Assembly: GCA_964516495.1 (NCBI GenBank)
Contig: CAZEZF010000001.1
Span: 10,041-74,040 of the forward strand
Source of the DNA: an uncultured Acidimicrobiia bacterium
GTDB lineage: Bacteria > Actinomycetota > Acidimicrobiia > Spongiisociales > Spongiisociaceae
Direction of reading: 5' to 3'
DNA length: 64,000 bases
The position numbers were made by a program, and so were the translations under genes. Of this stretch, positions 947 through 48,972 are shown piece by piece; position 1 is the stretch's first letter, and the number at the start of each line of letters is the position of its first letter. A model generated the notes under the pieces. It did not search any database and was not told where the DNA came from. It worked only from the letters and a program-made list of their open reading frames with translations.

Positions 947-1684
947 TCAGCCTTCTCCGACTCCCGAGGCGCCGGCGCTGGGCGGGTCAAGGATCAGAGT
1001 CACGCGAGGATGTGCCTGAAGCACCGAGGCCGGTACGGAGTTGCTGATCGGTCCGTGCCGGGACTCGAACACGACATCGGCCTTGGCCGAACCGGAAGCG
1101 ATCACAACCAGATGTTCGGCTTGTAGGATCGTGCCGAGTCCCTGGGTCAAGGCATGATGCGGGACCTCATCGAGGCTGTTGAAGAATCGGGAGTTGTGCA
1201 TTCGCGTATCTGAGGTGAGACGCACGATCCTCGTGTGGGAATCGAATCCAGCGCCTGGTTCGTTGAAAGCGAGGTGGCCATTGCAACCGATGCCGAGGAC
1301 CTGGATTCCGATCCTTGCCTGGATAACGAGGCGCTCGTAGCGGACACATTCCCTGTCGAGGTCGATAGCGGAAACGTCGGGAACATGCACGCAAGCCGGG
1401 TCAATGTCGACATGTCCGGTCAGTTCGGAGCGGATGACATTACGGTACAGCTGCGGATGTTCAGGGTCGAGTCCTATGTATTCGTCCAGTAGGAAGGCTT
1501 GACACTCGGCGAACGAGAGCGACTCCTCCTTGTGACGCCGTACCAATTCCCGGTAGAGAAGTTGGACGGAACTCCCGGTTGCCAGCCCTAGCACGGGCGC
1601 CGGTGTGGAACGAAGATATGTATCAACGAGGTCGGCCGCTACCAGGGCTGAGGCCGCGGAGTTCCTGCCGACGACGACCTTCAT
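947..1684 (-). CDS. nagB: glucosamine-6-phosphate deaminase
   Basis: The 267-aa ORF contains the NagB/6-phosphogluconolactonase-fold motifs (LGLATGSS, GIGCNGHLAFNEPG). The likely start is the internal ATG at 1684 (MKVVVGRN...) rather than the ORF-track start at 1750. Confidence 0.8.
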   Translation of the reverse strand: MKVVVGRNSAASALVAADLVDTYLRSTPAPVLGLATGSSVQLLYRELVRRHKEESLSFAECQAFLLDEYIGLDPEHPQLYRNVIRSELTGHVDIDPACVHVPDVSAIDLDRECVRYERLVIQARIGIQVLGIGCNGHLAFNEPGAGFDSHTRIVRLTSDTRMHNSRFFNSLDEVPHHALTQGLGTILQAEHLVVIASGSAKADVVFESRHGPISNSVPASVLQAHPRVTLILDPPSAGASGVGEG

Positions 1685-1841
1685 CCCGTTTCTGCGGTTT
1701 GCTCGGTCCGGCGCCGACGACGGAGGGACGACCACCTGATAGCCGCCCACTCGTTATGCGTTACGGTTATCGGCGTCGGCATGTGGGTGGGTAGGGTCAC
1801 ACCGGATCGCACAGACGGTGTGAAGGTTCATCCCGGTCTTC

Positions 1842-2609
1842 TCATCTCGGCGTCTCCACGGTCTTGGCGCCGGTGATGAAGCCCACCAGATCCCCTTTGG
1901 TGACTTCTTCGACCTTTATCTCGGCGGTCTTCCTGCCGCGTCGAAGGACTACGGCGTCGTCGCACACCTCGGTCACCCGGTCCATGTTATGGGTGATGAG
2001 CAGGACCGCAACCCCGGAACTGCGTAATGTCCTGATCAGGTCGAGCACCCGCTCGGCCTGCTCCACTCCCAGCGCGGCGGCCGGTTCATCCAGCAGTACG
2101 ATCTGTTGGCCCCAGGACACGGCCCTGCCGATGGCGATGGCTTGGCGCTGTCCACCCGAAAGCAACCTGACCCGCCTCCGTAGCGACGGGATGTCGATAT
2201 CGAGATGAGAGAGGGCTGTCCGGCATTCGGACTCCATCTTCGTCTTGTTGAGTATCCCGAGTCTTGCTCCTAGCCGACCTCCCCGGGTGGGTTCCCGGTT
2301 GAGAAAGAGGTTTTCGATCACGCTGAGCGTGTCGATGAGTGAGAGGTTCTGATGAACCGTTTCGATTCCGAGTGAGCGGGCTACATCCGGTGAAGGTATC
2401 CGGCGCACCACCCCGTCGATACTGATCGTTCCGGAGTCCGGTTGGTGTATACCGGCGATGCACTTGACCAGGGTGGACTTACCGGCCCCGTTGTCACCCA
2501 GAAGGGCGGTCACTCTTCCTCGGTGGATACTCATGGAGACTCCGTCGAGAGCCTGAACCGCCCGGAAGGCTTTGGAAAGGTTCTTGACCTCGAGCGCCGG
2601 AACGCTCAT
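1842..2609 (-). CDS. sugar ABC transporter ATP-binding protein (single nucleotide-binding domain)
   Basis: Walker A GDNGAGKST, ABC signature LSGGQRQ, Walker B VLLDEP. It overlaps the upstream gene by 4 nt, so it is in an operon. Confidence 0.85.
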   Translation of the reverse strand: MSVPALEVKNLSKAFRAVQALDGVSMSIHRGRVTALLGDNGAGKSTLVKCIAGIHQPDSGTISIDGVVRRIPSPDVARSLGIETVHQNLSLIDTLSVIENLFLNREPTRGGRLGARLGILNKTKMESECRTALSHLDIDIPSLRRRVRLLSGGQRQAIAIGRAVSWGQQIVLLDEPAAALGVEQAERVLDLIRTLRSSGVAVLLITHNMDRVTEVCDDAVVLRRGRKTAEIKVEEVTKGDLVGFITGAKTVETPR

Positions 2610-3811
2610 CCCCTGAACCTGCGCGCCGGCTCACCCAAGACGTTCCATATTCCGGCGATAGCAGGGTTATCGGTTGCCGCCCCGTCTATTCCTACCACCG
2701 TGGCCCGCGTCACGAAAGCCTGAACGCGGAACGCGCATATGACGGAATCGCCTTCCTGCACCGACCGACCGGCCGGAGGATGCAGTCTTGCGTAATAGTC
2801 GATTCCGGAAGGACTGGGAAGCTCCAGCGGTACTGTTTCGGAGGACACGTCCTCCGGGCCGGACGACAGCAATGCCTGTGCCTGGTAAGGGTCGAAGACG
2901 GGGTCCACATAGAAGCCGCCTCCGAAGCAGAGGGGAACGCCCTGATGGATGTGGGCGATCTCCGTCAGGTAGAGCACGGCAGGCTTTTCCGGAAGTTCCT
3001 CTACCGCGTGCAGCGGTGTGGTGCCGGTCAGGCCGTGACCGGGCTCGACCTGGGTGGCGCCCGCGTCTGCGAGGAGCTTCAGGACCGCGGTGGATGTGGT
3101 TCCGGGTGCGTTGACCTCGATTCGGGCGCCGGGGCTGAGAACCGCGGTGGCTACCTCCACGCCTCGGGCGAGGGTTGCGGCGTTAGGGGTTGTGGCGGTC
3201 GTCTTGGTGGCGGGATCGTACAGGAGCGCCGGAAAGGTAGTAAGTCCGGCGAAGCGCAAGCCGTCGAGGCCGTTGACGAACTCGATCGCGGCAGGCAGTT
3301 CCTCCAGACCGAAGCCTCCCTCATGGCCCGGATAGAACACGTCGCCCTCATCCCAGATCCGTAACAGAACCTGCTGGGTTCGCCCAAGTCGCGCTACCGC
3401 GCGCGACGCTGCGATCGCCTTGGACCGGGAGAAGATCGTCCAGTACTCGGGAGCAAGCCGCGCCGCCTCGGCCGTTTCCGCGCGAGCGATCTGGACAAGG
3501 TGGCCTAGGTTACCCAGCCTGTGCCCTCCCTCAACAATCGGCCGCGCACAGTCCATATCTACTGCCACATACCCATCGACGCCGCCTGCTGTGATAGCGT
3601 CGAGGGCGCCGCCCGCTCGTCCGAGTTGCTTGGTCATTGCGTACACCTTCAAACCCAACCGGTGCGCCTCCGAGGTAAGGATGCGGGTGTTCGACTCCAG
3701 GGCGTCGAGGTCGATGACATATGAGTTCGGGGGTATGCACCCCTCCTGGTGCAGCCGGATGGTCGCCTCGACGAAGGGCCGGTTCCGCTTGACCAGTGAA
3801 CTAAGGAACAT
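2606..3811 (-). CDS. PLP-dependent alanine-racemase-like TIM-barrel protein (YhfX-like putative amino-acid racemase)
   Basis: 401 aa. The N-terminal alanine racemase-like fold pattern (VIDLDALESN...KVYAMTKQ) is visible. The family assignment comes from sequence recognition only. Confidence 0.5.
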   Translation of the reverse strand: MFLSSLVKRNRPFVEATIRLHQEGCIPPNSYVIDLDALESNTRILTSEAHRLGLKVYAMTKQLGRAGGALDAITAGGVDGYVAVDMDCARPIVEGGHRLGNLGHLVQIARAETAEAARLAPEYWTIFSRSKAIAASRAVARLGRTQQVLLRIWDEGDVFYPGHEGGFGLEELPAAIEFVNGLDGLRFAGLTTFPALLYDPATKTTATTPNAATLARGVEVATAVLSPGARIEVNAPGTTSTAVLKLLADAGATQVEPGHGLTGTTPLHAVEELPEKPAVLYLTEIAHIHQGVPLCFGGGFYVDPVFDPYQAQALLSSGPEDVSSETVPLELPSPSGIDYYARLHPPAGRSVQEGDSVICAFRVQAFVTRATVVGIDGAATDNPAIAGIWNVLGEPARRFRG

Positions 3812-3817
3812 GGTTGC

Positions 3818-4819
3818 TCAACTTTCGCTCGGAGCTCGCATACTGAGCGCAACCGCCACGATGATGATCAATCCACGGGCGATCAGTTGGTCGGCCACCT
3901 CCAACCCCATGAGGATCAGACCGTTGTTGAGCATGGCCATGATCACCGCGCCGGTTACCGCGCCGGTGATGGAGGCCCGGCCTCCGAACAGGCTTGTCCC
4001 GCCGATTACCACCGCCGCGATTACGGTCAGTAGATCGTTCTCCCCCAGATCGTGCCGACCGATCGCCAACCTGCCCGCCAGGAGGACTCCGGCGAAAGCA
4101 GCGGCCGTGGCGCTGAGTACGAGGGCGCCTACTCGGATACGGTCGGTGTTGAGGCCGACCGCGTTGGCTGCCGATCGGTCGGTTCCCGTGGCTAGTACAT
4201 GTCGTCCCCATCGCAAATGGTGAAGGGCGAAGTGACCGAGCCCGAAGGCGATGAGGGTCCAGATCACCAGGGACGAGATCGGACCTACGGACCCGGCCCC
4301 GAACAAGGCCGAGAACGTGTCGTCCCTTATCGGTAACGACTGGAGATTATTCATGTTGCGGGCGATCCCGCTGATGATCCCCAGCGTTCCCAGCGTGACC
4401 AGGAAGGACGGTATGCGTATCTTGACCGTGATAAGACCGTTTACCAAGCCGATAAGAAGTCCTGTACCGACTGCGGCCAACGTACCGGGGAGCCAGCCGT
4501 AGGCGCCGACGACCGTAGCTGCGACCAAGGAAGATAAGGCCACTGTCGAACCCACCGACAGGTCGATCTCCGCCGAAGCCAGCGCGAACGCCATCCCGAC
4601 CGCCATGACGGCGATGGGCGCCGCTTGGCGGCCGATGTTCAGCAGGTTGGACCAACGGAGAAACCCGTCATCCCACAGCACGATGGCGAAGGCGGCCAGG
4701 ATCGATACGAAGGCAAGGTATACGACGTACTGGCGAAAGCCTTCGCTATCATCCCGGGCGGCCCGACGGGACACAACCCGACGGGCTAGCCCGCCTACCG
4801 TGCTTCGGACCGCCTTCAC
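3818..4819 (-). CDS. sugar ABC transporter permease (RbsC/AraH-like, about 9 TM segments)
   Basis: 333 aa, hydrophobic throughout, with the typical branched-chain/ribose-type permease motifs. It sits between the substrate-binding protein and ATPase genes. Confidence 0.8.
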   Translation of the reverse strand: MKAVRSTVGGLARRVVSRRAARDDSEGFRQYVVYLAFVSILAAFAIVLWDDGFLRWSNLLNIGRQAAPIAVMAVGMAFALASAEIDLSVGSTVALSSLVAATVVGAYGWLPGTLAAVGTGLLIGLVNGLITVKIRIPSFLVTLGTLGIISGIARNMNNLQSLPIRDDTFSALFGAGSVGPISSLVIWTLIAFGLGHFALHHLRWGRHVLATGTDRSAANAVGLNTDRIRVGALVLSATAAAFAGVLLAGRLAIGRHDLGENDLLTVIAAVVIGGTSLFGGRASITGAVTGAVIMAMLNNGLILMGLEVADQLIARGLIIIVAVALSMRAPSES

Positions 4820-4871: not shown

Positions 4872-7067
4872 TTATCCTCCTAGGGCTTGCATGATTTGGG
4901 GTGGTGGGTTGGTTGCGAGTGATTGTTGGTAGGCGTCGATGATGTTGTCGGCGGTTACTTTGATGGCGGGTACGACGGTGAAGGGTGGGGCGGGTTTACC
5001 GATGAGGCCGTAGGCGCCTTCGAGGGCCATGGTGCGGCCTAGGGCGTAGGCTTCATCGGCGGCTATTCCGACGATGTTGCCGCCTTCTACCAGGTCGAGC
5101 GAGACGTTGGTGTCCAGGTCGAGGGTGACGACGGCTACGTCGGTTGCTCCCGCGGCGCGTAGTGCGGCTAGCACTCCGTCGGCGGGACCGGCCGACCAGG
5201 GGGCGTAGATACCGTCGAGGTCGGGGTTTCTGGTCAGCAGCGAGGAGGCGATCTGCTCGGCGGCGGCGGGATCGGCCAGGCCTTGTTCGTCGACGATTTC
5301 GATGTCGGGATAGGCGGCTTGGATCCAGGCTTTGAAGGCCTGGTCTCTTTGGTTGGTGACATAGTATGCGGCGTCGTGGTAGATGAAACCTACTTTGCCT
5401 TGACCGTCTAGGGCGTCTGCCAGCAGGTCGGCTGCTGCGATGCCCATGGCTGCGAGGTCGTCGGTGACGATGCCTACGTAGTCGGTTCCTTGGATGTATC
5501 CCTCCGGGACGTTGCTGAGGAACACCAGCTGCACCCCGGCTTCTACCGCGGGGCGGAATGCTTCGGCGCCGGAAACGGGGTCGAGGACCAGGCTGATGAT
5601 TATGTCGGGGTTCTGGGCCATGACGGTTTCGACGTCGTTGGCTTGTTGCGCCGCGTCGAATTGGGCGTTGGTTTCGGCGATAACCTCGATACCCAGCTCG
5701 GCGAAAGCGTCTCTGGCGCCTTGGCTTACCGCGTCGGTGAACGCCCCGGCGGTGTGCCAGAGCAGGGCGGCCGTGTGATTACCCGACTGCACCCGAGCAA
5801 TCTCGTCGCCGGTCAGGGTGATCTCACCCGACGGGGTGGCCGACTCACCCCCCGGACCCCGAGTCACCGGGGCCGCCGGCGATTCTCCTAGGGCTTGCAT
5901 GATTTGGGGTGGTGGGTTGGTTGCGAGTGATTGTTGGTAGGCGTCGATGATGTTGTCGGCGGTTACTTTGATGGCGGGTACGACGGTGAAGGGTGGGGCG
6001 GGTTTACCGATGAGGCCGTAGGCGCCTTCGAGGGCCATGGTGCGGCCTAGGGCGTAGGCTTCATCGGCGGCTATTCCGACGATGTTGCCGCCTTCTACCA
6101 GGTCGAGCGAGACGTTGGTGTCCAGGTCGAGGGTGACGACGGCTACGTCGGTTGCTCCCGCGGCGCGTAGTGCGGCTAGCACTCCGTCGGCGGGACCGGC
6201 CGACCAGGGGGCGTAGATACCGTCGAGGTCGGGGTTTCTGGTCAGCAGCGAGGAGGCGATCTGCTCGGCGGCGGCGGGATCGGCCAGGCCTTGTTCGTCG
6301 ACGATTTCGATGTCGGGATAGGCGGCTTGGATCCAGGCTTTGAAGGCCTGGTCTCTTTGGTTGGTGACATAGTATGCGGCGTCGTGGTAGATGAAACCTA
6401 CTTTGCCTTGACCGTCTAGGGCGTCTGCCAGCAGGTCGGCTGCTGCGATGCCCATGGCTGCGAGGTCGTCGGTGACGATGCCTACGTAGTCGGTTCCTTG
6501 GATGTATCCCTCCGGGACGTTGCTGAGGAACACCAGCTGCACCCCGGCTTCTACCGCGGGGCGGAATGCTTCGGCGCCGGAAACGGGGTCGAGGACCAGG
6601 CTGATGATTATGTCGGGGTTCTGGGCCATGACGGTTTCGACGTCGTTGGCTTGTTGCGCCGCGTCGAATTGGGCGTTGGTTTCGGCGATAACCTCGATAC
6701 CCAGCTCGGCGAAAGCGTCTCTGGCGCCTTGGCTTACCGCGTCGGTGAACGCCCCGGCGGTGTGCCAGAGCAGGGCGGCCGTGTGATTACCCGACTGCAC
6801 CCGAGCAATCTCGTCGCCGGTCAGGGTGATCTCACCCGACGGGGTGGCCGACTCACCCCCCGGACCCCGAGTCACCGGGGCCGCCGGCGCCTCCGGCTCG
6901 TCAGTTTCAGACATCTCGGTCGTCGTCGCTTGGGTCGTGGCGGCGGCCCGGGTTGTGGTGGTTTCCTCGACCGCTTCTTCGCCGTCGCAGGCGACGGCGA
7001 TCAGGCCGAGAGTCACCATGAGCGCGACCAGAAACGGCCGCTTGGGTGTCCTTGCCCTTGTTTTCAT
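4872..7067 (-). CDS. sugar ABC transporter substrate-binding lipoprotein (PBP type 1) carrying an internal 336-codon perfect tandem duplication
   Basis: Probable start MKTRARTPKRPFLVALMVTLGLIAVACDGEE (lipoprotein signal) at 7067. A Thr-rich linker follows, then two identical copies of a 336-aa periplasmic-binding-domain segment. The ORF is 753 aa as written. A normal substrate-binding protein is about 380 aa. Confidence 0.7.
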   Translation of the reverse strand: MKTRARTPKRPFLVALMVTLGLIAVACDGEEAVEETTTTRAAATTQATTTEMSETDEPEAPAAPVTRGPGGESATPSGEITLTGDEIARVQSGNHTAALLWHTAGAFTDAVSQGARDAFAELGIEVIAETNAQFDAAQQANDVETVMAQNPDIIISLVLDPVSGAEAFRPAVEAGVQLVFLSNVPEGYIQGTDYVGIVTDDLAAMGIAAADLLADALDGQGKVGFIYHDAAYYVTNQRDQAFKAWIQAAYPDIEIVDEQGLADPAAAEQIASSLLTRNPDLDGIYAPWSAGPADGVLAALRAAGATDVAVVTLDLDTNVSLDLVEGGNIVGIAADEAYALGRTMALEGAYGLIGKPAPPFTVVPAIKVTADNIIDAYQQSLATNPPPQIMQALGESPAAPVTRGPGGESATPSGEITLTGDEIARVQSGNHTAALLWHTAGAFTDAVSQGARDAFAELGIEVIAETNAQFDAAQQANDVETVMAQNPDIIISLVLDPVSGAEAFRPAVEAGVQLVFLSNVPEGYIQGTDYVGIVTDDLAAMGIAAADLLADALDGQGKVGFIYHDAAYYVTNQRDQAFKAWIQAAYPDIEIVDEQGLADPAAAEQIASSLLTRNPDLDGIYAPWSAGPADGVLAALRAAGATDVAVVTLDLDTNVSLDLVEGGNIVGIAADEAYALGRTMALEGAYGLIGKPAPPFTVVPAIKVTADNIIDAYQQSLATNPPPQIMQALGG
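4877..5884. repeat. tandem direct repeat unit 1 (1008 bp, 100% identical to unit 2)
   Basis: Sequence 4877-5884 equals 5885-6892 by direct reading, and identity was confirmed through 6889. The ORF-track pairs 5144/6152 and 5490/6498 are identical. The period is 1008 bp, which is 336 codons. Confidence 0.95.
5885..6892. repeat. tandem direct repeat unit 2 (1008 bp)
   Basis: See unit 1. The copies diverge at 6890 (c versus a at 5882). Junction microhomology is ctcctag. Confidence 0.95.
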
Positions 7068-7099
7068 TGTGTTCCTCTTGGTCATCGTTCCTCCCTTGG

Positions 7100-8356
7100 T
7101 CATCCTTTTCCGGCTTCCTCCACCCCGCACCACGAAGCCACGAAATGGGCCAGGCTGCGAGTGACGGAGACCAACTCCTCGATGGGAAGTCTCTCGAAAG
7201 GGGTGTGACAGGTCGCTATATCTCCTGCGGCGAAATACACGCCGGGTATACCCGCTGCACGGAGAAGTGGTTTCTCGGACCAGTAGGGAGCTCCTTCGAT
7301 CCGGGCTCGCCTGCCGGTCGTCCGTTTGATCGATTCCATCAATCGGGAAACGCCGGGGTGATCCGGCGATACCTCATCGGGCGTTCCTCCTACACAGTGA
7401 TCGCGCGGCGCTGTGAAGGCCACATCAGCGATCACGCCGCACTGCTCGGACACCTCTTCTACGATGCGTCTCAGTAGGTCGGCTTTGAGGTCGAGGTCAT
7501 CACCGGGTAGCAGCTTCTCGATGAGCGATAGCCGGAAGTTACCCGGAACAGCAATACTGCCTCCCGCGTCGACGCCGGTGACGAGCAGGAAACGGTGTCC
7601 GAGTAGTTCGTGTGGTGAACCGGCCCGCAGTGTCTCGTCGTGGCGCCAGAGTTCGCTTAACAGGCGGTGGCCCGCCCGTAGGGCGTCTATCCCCTGCTCC
7701 GGGGTTCCGAAGTAAGCCGACTTTCCCGATAGGGTTACATCGGCGATCAGAAATCCCATCTGCGCCGTGTAGATCGCTCCGGTGGTAGGTTCGGTGTAGA
7801 TTGCGAAATCGGGAACCCGCTCCGGGTCCGGGAATAGCCGGGAGACGGCGGCCCTCATTCCTATGGAAAGGCCACTATCCGGTTGTCCGGACTCCTCATC
7901 ACATACGAAGACTCCCGTCAGTGGTCCGGCCAATCGATAACCGGCTCTATCTACGGCGCGTACCGACTCGATTATTGAACAGATTCCGGCTTTCTGGTCG
8001 GTGACCCCCCGGGCCCGGATCACGCCCTCTGATACGTGTCCGACAAAGGGATCGGCCCGATCAGACCCCTTCCACTCGCGGATCCAGTCGTCCGCATGTA
8101 CAGTGTCCAGATGACCTGCGAGCACCAATGAAGGTCCGGTGGCGCCTCCGGTCTCTGCGTACACGTTAGGACGTCCGGGTTCCACCTCCTCCATTCGAGT
8201 CCTGTTCCAAGCCCCCTTCGCCAATTGTCGGCTTACCCATTCGGCGAAAGCCGTCTCTTGGAGGGTGATGCTGGGAATGCGAACCGCATCAAGGACCAAC
8301 CCGACCAGCTCTTTCTGATCCACCGCCTCGGCTACCCGGTCCGCCGCGGTCTTCAC
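7100..8356 (-). CDS. M20 family metallopeptidase (ArgE/DapE/carboxypeptidase-like)
   Basis: 418 aa with the M20 catalytic and dimerisation-domain pattern (HLDTVHADDW, GVTDQKAG). It overlaps the ROK gene by 4 nt. Confidence 0.75.
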   Translation of the reverse strand: MKTAADRVAEAVDQKELVGLVLDAVRIPSITLQETAFAEWVSRQLAKGAWNRTRMEEVEPGRPNVYAETGGATGPSLVLAGHLDTVHADDWIREWKGSDRADPFVGHVSEGVIRARGVTDQKAGICSIIESVRAVDRAGYRLAGPLTGVFVCDEESGQPDSGLSIGMRAAVSRLFPDPERVPDFAIYTEPTTGAIYTAQMGFLIADVTLSGKSAYFGTPEQGIDALRAGHRLLSELWRHDETLRAGSPHELLGHRFLLVTGVDAGGSIAVPGNFRLSLIEKLLPGDDLDLKADLLRRIVEEVSEQCGVIADVAFTAPRDHCVGGTPDEVSPDHPGVSRLMESIKRTTGRRARIEGAPYWSEKPLLRAAGIPGVYFAAGDIATCHTPFERLPIEELVSVTRSLAHFVASWCGVEEAGKG

Positions 8357-9558
8357 GGACTGTTCCTCCTGTTGAGTATTCCTTGTACGAAGGTCGTGGT
8401 AACCGAGGATCGGGCGGTTGACACCGCGCCCAGGAAAGCGGCCCGGTTCCCGAGTTCGGACGGCGCCAGTTCGGGGGTTGTGTCGAGGTAGCGGCCTAGT
8501 CTCGTTCTGACCGCGTCAACGAATATCGGGTTGGCGCCCACCCCTCCCCCGAAGACGATGCGGGCTGGATCGTTGATCCAGCAGAGAGAGGCGACCGCCG
8601 AGGACATTGCCCCGGCGGCGACTCCGAGCGTCTCGGAAGCGGCGTCGTCCCCTTGCGACGCGGCTAGGAGGAGTTCCGAGACGTCAGCGTCGCCGTCGAG
8701 GCATGATCGTCGGCCGTTTGCCAGCGATTGCTTGAAGCGTCTGTGGATGGCCGGCGCGGATGCCAGGTCCTCGAGTGTGAGGGGCGCCGCCCCTTCCTGA
8801 GGAGGTTCGGCGATGATGACCGACCCGAGTTCTCCGGCGGCGCCGTGTCCCCCACGGTACAGGCGCCCGTCTACAACCAACCCGGCGCCTATTCCCGTAC
8901 CGACCGATATAGCTACAAAGTTCTGGCTCTCGCGGTCGTCCATAGCCTCGGCTTCCGCTACCGCTGCCAGGTTCACGTCGTTTTCGATGGTGATCGGGAT
9001 ACCGAGGCGTTTCGCTAACTCCGCCTGTATGGGAATATCCCCGAATCCGGGCAGATTGGGCGACATATCGACCCGATCGGCAACTGGTCGGTAGACACCC
9101 GGGACACCAACACATCCCGATTCGAGGAGGTGACCCTTGTTTCCCATCTGATCGAGAAGTCTGATAGTGGTCTCCACCAGGCTGTCAACGGCGCTACGGG
9201 CGTTGGGAGGGGTTCGCAGACGTTCCTCCGCGAGGACCGTGCCGACAAGATCGGCAATGCCCACGATGACCTTGGTGGCGCCTAGGTCCACACCGACCAC
9301 CAGCGCGGCGTCGGGGACCAGGACGTACGGCAGCGCCGGCCGACCGATCCTCCTCTGCGAGCGTTCCGGGGATATAAGGCTGACCACGCCGGCGTCTTCG
9401 AGGTCGGACACCAGGGCCGACACGGTGGGCTTTGAAAGGCCGGTCCGGCGAGCGACCGTGGCTCGCGAGATCGGATAGGGGGCGGCTTCGATGAACTCTT
9501 CGAATACGGCTTGGCCGTTACGTAGGCGGAGAGCCCAGGAGCCGGAACCGTCGATCAT
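8353..9558 (-). CDS. ROK family transcriptional regulator (NagC/Mlc-like: N-terminal HTH plus sugar-kinase fold)
   Basis: HTH ISRATVARRTGLSKPTVSALVSDLE, then the ROK glycine-rich motifs VGVDLGATK and GTGIGAGLV. The start is either ATG 9558 (MIDGSGS) or ATG 9591. Confidence 0.75.
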   Translation of the reverse strand: MIDGSGSWALRLRNGQAVFEEFIEAAPYPISRATVARRTGLSKPTVSALVSDLEDAGVVSLISPERSQRRIGRPALPYVLVPDAALVVGVDLGATKVIVGIADLVGTVLAEERLRTPPNARSAVDSLVETTIRLLDQMGNKGHLLESGCVGVPGVYRPVADRVDMSPNLPGFGDIPIQAELAKRLGIPITIENDVNLAAVAEAEAMDDRESQNFVAISVGTGIGAGLVVDGRLYRGGHGAAGELGSVIIAEPPQEGAAPLTLEDLASAPAIHRRFKQSLANGRRSCLDGDADVSELLLAASQGDDAASETLGVAAGAMSSAVASLCWINDPARIVFGGGVGANPIFVDAVRTRLGRYLDTTPELAPSELGNRAAFLGAVSTARSSVTTTFVQGILNRRNSP

Positions 9559-9697
9559 GGGAAGGGCCCGAGACGGGTGGCTATACGGCATGCCGATTGA
9601 AGGGACACCACTAATCGAGGAGTCGATTCATGACGGAGCGTACCGACTCGCTGCGATCGTCGACGGTCGCCATATCGGTCATACAGGTGATCCGGAT

Positions 9698-9881: not shown

Positions 9882-10029
9882 CTCAGCCCCGATTTTTTAT
9901 GCAGGGGTTTGAATGGGTAACCGAGAGAGATGCAAAGAACTCTCTGACCTGGGCGGATAGCCGCTTGGTGGGCTTGGCGCGGCCTTTTAGGGTTCGGTGT
10001 GTCCGGGCATGAAGAAGAATCAGGGCTAG
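9882..10029 (+). repeat. interspersed repeat family copy A (short variant lacking most of the central segment)
   Basis: 5' ctcagccccgattttttatGCAGGGGTTTGAATGGGTAACCGAGAGAG... 3' ...cttggcgcGGCCTTTTaGGGTTCGGTGTGTCcGGGCATGAAGAAGAATCAGGGCTAG. It aligns with the copies at 24201, 41536, 42991, 48764 and 56752. Confidence 0.85.
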
Positions 10030-24200: not shown

Positions 24201-24408
24201 CTTAACCCCGATTTTAACGCAGGGGTTTGAATGGATAACCGAGAGAGACGCAATGAACTCTCTGACCTGGGAAAATAGCTGTTTGACGGCCTCGCCTGTC
24301 CGGAGGGCGCCCTTCACCTGTAGGGTGATCGCCTGACACGCCGTGAAGATACGTTTGACGCGGCCTTTTCGAGGTCGGTATGACGGGGCATGAAGAATTG
24401 GGGTTAAC
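24201..24408 (+). repeat. interspersed repeat family copy B
   Basis: cttaaccccgattttaacGCAGGGGTTTGAATGGATAACCGAGAGAG...TTTGACGCGGCCTTTTCGAGGTCGGTATGACGGGGCATGAAGAATTGGGGTTAAC. It lies between the pafB start (24082) and the pafA stop (24511). Confidence 0.85.
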
Positions 24409-42990: not shown

Positions 42991-43199
42991 CTAACCCCAA
43001 TTTTTCATGCAGGGGTTTGGATGGGTAACCGAGAGAGGTGAAATTAACCACATGACCTGGGAAGATAGCTGCGTGACGGCCTCGTCTGGACGGGGCGCCC
43101 CTATCACCCGGAGGTGAAGGCCGGGACATCCCGTGAAAGTGGGCTTGACGTGGCCTTTTTGAGTTCGGTGTGTCTGGGGCATGAAGAATCAGTGCTAAC
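42991..43199 (+). repeat. interspersed repeat family copy D (forward, starts 1 nt after the tadG-like stop)
   Basis: ctaaccccaatttttcatGCAGGGGTTTGGATGGGTAACCGAGAGAG...GCTTGACGTGGCCTTTTTGAGTTCGGTGTGTCTGGGGCATGAAGAATCAGTGCTAAC. It is inverted relative to copy C. Confidence 0.85.
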
Positions 43200-48763: not shown

Positions 48764-48972
48764 CAGCTCCAATTTTTCACGCAGGGGTTTGATTGGGTTA
48801 GCCGAGAGATAGGCTAGGGACACCCCTGACTTGGGAGGATAGCTGCTTGGCGGCCTCTACTGGCCGGGGCGCCCCCATCACCCTGAGGTGAACGCCGGGA
48901 CGACCCACGATGCTGCGCTTGACGTGGCCTTTTTGGGTTCGGTGTTTCTGGGGCATGAAGAATACGGGCTAA
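48764..48972 (+). repeat. interspersed repeat family copy E (forward)
   Basis: cagctccaatttttcacGCAGGGGTTTGATTGGGTTAGCCGAGAGAT...GCTTGACGTGGCCTTTTTGGGTTCGGTGTTTCTGGGGCATGAAGAATACGGGCTAAT. Confidence 0.85.

Follow-up and report, generated by a model that had tools for sequence, protein, structure and literature searches.

Tandem identical binding domains in an ABC substrate-binding lipoprotein of sponge-associated Acidimicrobiia: a probably ancestral duplication homogenised by recombination

A 64,000-nucleotide (nt) stretch of DNA from an uncultured Acidimicrobiia bacterium of the family Spongiisociaceae (GenBank assembly GCA_964516495.1, contig CAZEZF010000001.1, positions 10,041–74,040), referred to here as the window, carries on its minus strand (4872..7067) a gene for an ATP-binding cassette (ABC) substrate-binding lipoprotein in which nearly the entire binding domain is encoded twice in tandem. 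The array is most probably explained by an ancestral in-frame tandem duplication that was inherited, its copies being homogenised by recombination, with occasional loss or gain of a copy.

Direct sequence comparison confirmed a tandem direct repeat with a period of 1008 nt at 4877–6892, the period and place given in a preliminary description of this DNA; the exact identity, described there as 1008 nt, extends over 1005 nt. Positions 4877–5881 equal 5885–6889 base for base, and the sole bases breaking the repeat are 5882–5884, between the two copies. In the register 4877–5884 versus 5885–6892, there are two mismatches, at 5882 and 5883. An exact repeat of 1005 nt cannot have arisen by chance. 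No third copy of the unit is present anywhere in the window. Tandem Repeats Finder did not report the repeat because its longest period is 500, and direct comparison was used instead.

The repeat lies inside a minus-strand open reading frame (ORF; 7133..4872) whose translation has two occurrences of the segment PAAPVTRGPGGE...IMQALG. Along the coding strand, the N-terminal boundary of the unit reads GAG GCG / CCG GCG (E-A-PAAPVT, preceded by P), and the C-terminus reads CTA GGA GGA TAA (ALGG-stop). The junction, CTA GGA / GAA TCG / CCG GCG (ALG-Glu-Ser-PAAPVT), is in frame and holds 3 nt found in neither flank. Thus, the anchor-proximal copy (5885..6889), exactly identical to 4877..5881, encodes binding domain 1, residues 61–394, together with the codon of Glu395; the junction codons GAA TCG (5880..5885), of a junction type common to relatives, encode Glu395-Ser396; and the other copy (4877..5881) encodes binding domain 2, residues 397–730, followed by Gly731 and the stop codon.

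No microhomology was found at the junction of the window repeat, since the identity (1005 nt) is shorter than the period (1008 nt). The sequence ctcctag, previously proposed as about 7 bp of such microhomology, merely represents the 7 nt with which the unit starts. A pentamer, CCTCC, is found at both 4876–4880 and 6890–6894, but joining there would yield a period of 1006, out of frame. An internal start with its own ribosome-binding site at the junction, serving domain 2 alone, was also considered and judged unlikely: AGGAG is present, but some 15 nt separate it from the next start-type codon in frame.

The encoded protein is predicted to be the lipid-anchored substrate-binding protein of a CUT2-type (ribose/arabinose-like) ABC importer. 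Its signal peptide (6987..7067) ends in a putative lipobox (…GLIAVA-C27), so labelled from the known lipoprotein signal pattern; every relative shares this ...A[AV][AS]C motif. A tether rich in Thr, Ala, Pro and Glu (residues 28–60, 6890..6986) connects the lipid anchor to domain 1, and AlphaFold assigns a predicted local distance difference test score (pLDDT) below 50 to residues 1–59. The single lipoprotein signal at Cys27 and the Thr-rich linker described earlier are thus both seen in the translation. Pfam family PF13407 (Peripla_BP_4) matches the protein twice (246 bits against a cut-off of 35.1, E = 5e-73), with the best stretch at 460–703 of the longest ORF. No NCBIfam equivalog model reaches its cut-off. 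A single unit is closest to the solved ribose/arabinose-type sugar-binding chains 3g1w, 6sw4 and 2ioy. In an AlphaFold (AF2) model of the two-domain protein, built on 16 homologues, the N-terminus is disordered and is followed by two complete alpha/beta periplasmic-binding folds, at residues 66–392 and 402–728 (mean pLDDT 72). A Foldseek search with this model retrieved only single-domain sugar-binding proteins, each spanning half of it. By profile and model, both halves are complete Peripla_BP_4 (type-I) binding folds.

The tether itself is a hypervariable low-complexity region, varying strongly in composition and length among relatives and differing by clade: (DDDMA)n in Poriferisodalis, (PE)n or (PAPEP)n in others, and Thr-rich in the clade of the window (examples are L055, L056 and L060–L063, at about 5800–6010, and L039–L075; loci are denoted by L and proteins by P). 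Tether length may be another variable parameter of reach.

Translation, the ORF list, Pfam and homologue starts together define the gene. Homologues begin with MKTRARTPK, which corresponds to ATG 7067 and gives a protein of 731 amino acids (aa), with the stop codon at 4872–4874. The 753 aa reported earlier hold for the longest ORF only, which starts at GTG 7133 and overlaps the upstream M20 gene by 34 nt. Two further starts are ATG 7085, with GGGAGGA 4 nt upstream, and ATG 7103, in an ATGA overlap with the M20 stop codon. An imperfect 18-nt tandem duplication in the start region (7071–7104) inserts the residues MTKRNT; it makes three in-frame ATGs (7103, 7085 and 7067), and the true start is therefore ambiguous.

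The array is not confined to the window. A protein search returned twelve proteins of 640–745 aa that are 74–91% identical to the query over its full length. In ten of them (P0001–P0010) the halves are identical residue for residue, apart from one difference in P0004, and the periods are 336, 337, 339 or 341 codons. Clusters at 90% identity hold both ∼730-aa and ∼395-aa members, including RefSeq WP_420612796.1 (731 aa). A scan of one genome per GTDB species yielded 78 loci, all from Acidimicrobiia metagenome-assembled genomes (MAGs) named for sponge association (Candidatus Spongiisociaceae, Poriferisodalis, Aldehydirespirator), many of them chromosome-scale; the sponge association of these families has been described (PMC11706023). 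The tandem array is present in 13 of these species-representative loci, with periods of 1008, 1011, 1017 or 1029; 12 of the 13 have 0–1 mismatches per ∼1 kb, the exception being L005. In one locus, L010, the unit occurs three times within an uninterrupted frame of 1109 aa. Seven further multi-copy loci, two of them on HiFi-style contigs, were fetched via their proteins, so that, with the window, 21 multi-copy loci holding 43 copies were available. They come from different samples and from HiFi, SPAdes and MEGAHIT assemblies; all lie in the same conserved operon, and every array keeps the reading frame.

Four short-read contigs scored as single-copy (L013, L019, L024 and L030) end, start or gap exactly at the junction and are broken multi-copy genes. 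Short-read MAGs break or collapse the gene at these loci, so domain counts and single-copy calls taken from them are unreliable.

Two irregularities were seen among the relatives. In L001, from the chromosome-level MAG OY760694, no in-frame signal peptide precedes the first unit (5761–6030), the open frame there reading RHHHRPATT...; the gene call on this contig is 667 aa, and the near-identical P0001 and P0146 are normal 728-aa proteins. The loss reflects either a frameshift or an assembly indel. In addition, the binding domain is annotated as fused to a permease domain in P0098 and P0101 (PF13407+PF02653), to a ROK regulator in P0064 (PF00480+PF13407), and within a sensor kinase in P0072 (PAS+PBP+HisKA). 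The first two kinds of fusion may be gene-call read-throughs.

To compare copies, we used a 984-nt core unit that aligns without gaps across all loci. Copies within one gene differ at 0–5 of the 984 nt in 19 of the 21 loci, the others being L083 (13 differences) and L005 (84). Between species, the unit differs by 2–31% overall and by 0.04–0.71 at third codon positions, up to saturation, and the synonymous divergence (dS) is 0.06–0.42 even for close pairs; the third-position difference between copies of one gene is 0–0.012. In a neighbour-joining tree, all 43 copies, from the 21 loci, pair with their own partner in the same gene. Protein-level selection cannot hold synonymous sites, and the copies are therefore being homogenised. 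This is concerted evolution, by gene conversion or unequal crossing-over, and it keeps homogenising the interior of the unit.

The residual differences between copies cluster at unit positions 978–984 and in the first 10–25 nt beside the junction, in keeping with conversion tracts that must be bounded by homology on either side. The two more diverged loci differ in kind. All 13 differences in L083 lie inside nt 763–936, giving a mosaic. In L005, 75 of the 84 differing nt are at third positions and 5 amino acids differ, with a nonsynonymous divergence (dN) of 0.010, a dS of 0.39 and hence a dN/dS of about 0.025 between copies, which are almost the same over some 250 nt in the centre. Unless they are strain chimeras, these two loci reveal conversion tracts covering part of the unit, with both domains under strong purifying selection.

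The junction codons, which lie outside the homogenised interior, bear on the age of the duplication. Nine genomes of one clade, clade B (L003, L004, L006, L007, L015, L025, L080, L024 and L019), share GAG TCN GTG after ALG, which reads Glu-Ser-Val (ESV), or Glu-Ser-Ala (ESA) in L019; these codons are absent from the N-terminal flanks of the same genomes. On the junction side, L007, L015 and L025 still have CCG ATG, and their own N-terminal flank is CCT/CCA GTG; because it differs from that flank, the junction is not a recent copy of it. In the upper clade, the window included, all genomes have ALG-Glu-x; this junction type is seen in L001, L002, L005, L008, L011, L079, L083 and L084. The L001 junction is still exactly the N-terminal sequence E-A-P-V-A-P-V-T, evidence that the unit first duplicated had 336 codons, that Glu being its first residue and ALG its end. 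On this reading, GAA TCG in the window corresponds to GAG GCG with two substitutions. An ALG-Met junction is common to L009, L030, P0008, P0009 and P0012, and perhaps L010, the flank there being Pro or Ala. Further types are ALG/AIG-Ala... in L081 (period 1023) and ALG-Val in L082 (period 1011).

Species that share such non-templated junction codons have units differing at dS 0.2–0.4 and beyond. Non-templated codons common to diverged species imply that the duplication is old and inherited. Judging from these shared codons, it predates the species splits within the clade-B (ESV/ESA) and M-junction groups. The original event was either a single one followed by drift of the junction, or there were up to about four.

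Copy number is not stable. Multi-copy and single-copy loci are interleaved in the neighbour-joining tree, and some of the single-copy loci lie on long-read chromosomes (L017, L020, L021, L022, L029 and L038). Several two-copy loci have a single-copy counterpart whose flanks match at species-level nt identity, as in L079 versus L021 (flank nt identity 95–98%), L080 versus L029 (96–97%), L083 versus L017 (97–98%) and L081 versus L035 (95–96.5%), and P0037, a protein with one domain, shares 98.5% amino-acid identity with the unit of the triple locus L010. Near-conspecific genomes thus differ in copy number (1 versus 2, 1 versus 3), so the array also contracts and expands. One, two and three copies are the states expected if 1-kb direct repeats recombine homologously, with deletion to one unit, which removes the junction, or expansion to three. 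These genomes bear out the instability anticipated in the preliminary description (there ascribed to RecA), and both single- and double-domain homologues, the comparison it had proposed, are found in related genomes with the same operon. A separate observation concerns the unit of L083 and L017 (6199–7182), in which 79 of 984 nt differ, against only 121 mismatches in all in the 3.9-kb alignment containing it. The unit is several-fold more diverged than the flanks, a hint that strains have exchanged alleles through recombination.

We propose that a codon-exact tandem duplication in an ancestor fused two binding domains of ∼336 codons behind one signal peptide and tether, and that it was inherited in many species of sponge-associated Acidimicrobiia. 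Recombination between the 1-kb direct repeats, whether gene conversion or unequal sister-strand exchange, would overwrite one copy with the other; from general knowledge, it would be expected to depend on RecA. The interior would thereby stay identical within each genome and diverge between species, and the junction codons and outermost edges would escape and drift. The same recombination would sometimes delete a copy, giving a single-domain allele, or add one, giving a three-domain allele; since the period is divisible by three, the frame would always be kept. The persistence of the array despite its instability, together with purifying selection on diverging domains, implies that the multi-domain form is advantageous. 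The likeliest benefit would be two identical capture sites per membrane anchor beside the permease, allowing more capture of a scarce amino-sugar-like substrate; it may act as a higher local receptor concentration, or a longer reach, for a single homodimeric permease/ATPase translocator.

Several points weigh against this explanation. Deep clades differ in both junction type (E, M, A, V) and period (1008, 1011, 1017, 1023, 1029). The two loci with diverged or mosaic copies, L005 and L083, are short-read assemblies and could be strain chimeras. No signature of GC-biased gene conversion was found: the GC content at third codon positions (GC3) of multi-copy units is not above that of single-copy relatives or the GC of the locus. 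The AF2 model has a predicted template modelling score (pTM) of 0.50, at which its inter-domain geometry is unreliable. The functional benefit, the ligand and the dependence on RecA are matters that we infer, and the copy number in the genome of the window itself, resting on the assembly and on analogy with relatives, is presumptive.

Three other explanations of the repeat were weighed against an inherited, homogenised duplication. It is very improbable that an assembler wrote a single 1008-nt unit twice, an error that the preliminary description had considered. The perfect identity of the copies would suit it, as would the lack of any match to the exact junction 35-mer of the window in an exact search of metagenome contigs from the Joint Genome Institute (JGI). 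However, the junction holds 3 nt absent from both flanks and the frame is kept; in-frame arrays with lineage-specific junction codons, and with 'ALG-E-x' as a homologous junction, occur across 21 loci, the window counted, that stem from different samples and were assembled as HiFi, SPAdes or MEGAHIT contigs; and short-read assemblies tend to break or collapse at this gene, not to expand it. Even less credible, in our view, is an old duplication whose copies have stayed identical through protein-level selection alone. The strong purifying selection on both domains (the low dN/dS of L005) is in its favour, but third-position differences are 0–1.2% between copies versus the 20–70% reached between species, which demands recombinational homogenisation.

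An unlikely, though less remote, alternative is a very recent duplication, arising independently in each lineage as a transient amplification under selection, much as the preliminary description had suggested for transporter dosage. Copies that differ by only 0–5 nt, the existence of near-conspecific single-copy genomes, the different junction types and periods of deep clades, and other, independent domain duplications in the family (L113) would all accord with it. Independent events, however, would not recreate non-templated junctions in nine clade-B genomes, or the Met junction in at least five; all of them would have had to fall in frame at nearly identical boundaries; the edges have decayed where the interior is perfect; and the junction of L007, L015 and L025 is unlike their own N-terminal flank. 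Recency is further contradicted by the dS of 0.2–0.4 and beyond between species with the same non-templated codons. As for the remaining suggestion, a programmed two-domain binder, the two-domain part stands, given the complete Peripla_BP_4 folds and the maintained frame. Nothing indicates that the duplication is programmed, and ordinary homologous recombination between copies suffices.

Two-domain proteins with diverged halves also occur in the family (Chloroflexi L012 and P0013–P0018; JGI loci L087–L090, L112–L118 and L142). Like the protein of the window, they have two Peripla_BP_4 domains behind one signal. Unlike it, they lack homogenisation or are heterologous fusions: in 12 of 80 JGI metagenome loci, identity between the two domains is only 57–74%. 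The second domains at these loci mostly group together as a separate clade; in L113, the two halves pair. An Anaerolineae (Chloroflexi) MAG (L012, 3851–5914; also P0013–P0018 and L086) carries the same operon with a two-domain binding protein whose domain 1 shares about 75% identity with the Acidimicrobiia unit, and domain 2 about 50%. This second domain has single-domain relatives of its own (P0087, 68%; P0082, 63%), and an origin of the Chloroflexi form in the same duplication was therefore rejected, a heterologous fusion or a separate old event being more likely. The arrangement in L012 suggests gene transfer and heterologous domain fusion. The repeated fixation of a two-domain design in this family of binding proteins argues for its usefulness.

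A bolder extension can be put forward only tentatively, and we rather doubt it: domain number (1, 2 or 3) might be a selected, reversible trait, set by an in-frame recombinational contingency switch with which sponge symbionts tune the capture or reach of one importer, and the architecture might be convergent, with several origins (those of the E, M, A and V junctions, of L113, and of the diverged forms from soil and Chloroflexi). If true, this would be the first natural series of homo-multimeric substrate-binding lipoproteins.

The gene belongs to a conserved minus-strand cluster in the order regulator, deacylase, binding protein, permease, YhfX-like protein, half-size ATPase and NagB-like deaminase. 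Profile matches and synteny identify the first gene (8353..9591) as a ROK/NagC-like regulator. It is followed by an M20 / ArgE-DapE family deacylase (7100..8356; Pfam PF01546, NCBIfam TIGR01910; syntenic in 78 of 79 loci) and, beyond the binding protein, by an ABC permease of the AraH/RbsC type (BPD_transp_2; 77 of 79 loci), which is a separate gene (3818..4819) 52 nt downstream of the binding-protein stop codon. A YhfX-like protein with a pyridoxal phosphate (PLP) fold (2606..3811; Pfam Ala_racemase_N and YhfX-like_C, synteny), a half-size ABC ATPase of 255 aa matching the N-terminal half of RbsA/AraG-type ATPases (1842..2609; profile matches, synteny) and a glucosamine-6-phosphate deaminase-like (NagB-like) protein (947..1750) complete the cluster; the last matches Pfam PF01182, and NCBIfam NF001684 with 272 bits, below the cut-off of 326. 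Each gene is syntenic in 75–78 of the 79 loci, the NagB-like gene (67 of 79) being the exception. The NagB-like, deacylase and NagC-like neighbours suggest an operon for the uptake and catabolism of an amino-sugar-like compound. Double-cassette ATPases of ∼500 aa are typical of ribose/arabinose-type importers; the ATPase of the window aligns to their N-terminal half only. Conserved in sponge-associated Acidimicrobiia and in the Anaerolineae MAG, the operon may mark a nutrient exchanged in the sponge holobiont.

Elsewhere in the window, a dispersed repeat of about 90–230 nt has four plus-strand intergenic copies (9887–9974, 24205–24408, 42995–43198 and 48827–48972) that are 66–84% identical and share conserved blocks including CAGGGGTTTGAATGGGTAACCGAGAGAG and TTGACGCGGCCTTTTTGGGTTCGGTGT...GGGGCATGAAGAAT. 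RNAalifold on three copies gave a stem structure with little covariation. Rfam has no match to the dispersed repeat, nor to anything else in the window. It may represent a small RNA or a regulatory element, or else a mobile element of miniature size.

Our literature searches found no description of identical tandem binding-protein domains, of this locus, or of a binding-protein duplication in these taxa. The nearest functional analogue is GlnPQ of Lactococcus lactis and other Gram-positives, in which the permease is fused to tandem substrate-binding domains that now differ in both sequence and specificity (PMC8025302). As in GlnPQ, a single polypeptide of a monoderm ABC importer carries two extracytoplasmic binding domains, and by analogy both should be able to capture ligand near the translocator. 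Unlike GlnPQ, which uses another class of binding protein, the receptor described here is a separate lipoprotein of the Peripla_BP_4 type whose domains are identical down to synonymous sites and whose copy number is 1–3. Work on domain number has so far relied chiefly on GlnPQ, whose domains are diverged and fused to the permease; the natural allelic series of one, two or three identical domains per anchor allows domain number to be tested against ABC uptake.

The nearest genetic analogue is provided by the repeats of Periscope or Rib/alpha C type surface proteins, which are long, near-identical, in-frame DNA repeats, variable in copy number and under-reported by short reads (PMC8201768). Both systems have nearly 100% identical tandem repeats whose copy number differs between close strains through intragenic recombination. 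In Periscope proteins, the units are many small stalk domains that set the rod length of wall-anchored adhesins; the unit here is a complete 336-residue binding fold in 1–3 copies, and the anchor is a lipobox rather than a wall-sorting signal.

Concerted evolution of duplicated bacterial genes by gene conversion is well known from tufA/tufB and from rRNA operons. There too, copies cluster by genome and not by copy, and synonymous identity is kept by recombination. Those genes are separate and dispersed, whereas the copies described here are adjacent halves of one reading frame, so that the same recombination also changes the number of domains. Unstable tandem duplications under selection are likewise the subject of the amplification models of Roth and Andersson, which concern whole genes with arbitrary junctions and evolutionarily short-lived arrays. 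The RecA-type loss and expansion of direct repeats and the need of selection for their retention are shared features; the duplication described here differs in being intragenic, in frame and inherited across species. With its 1-kb unit, datable junctions and visible edge erosion, it offers a clean bacterial case of long-term concerted evolution inside a single gene. The finding joins two known phenomena, the concerted evolution of intragenic repeats and the multi-domain receptors of ABC importers.

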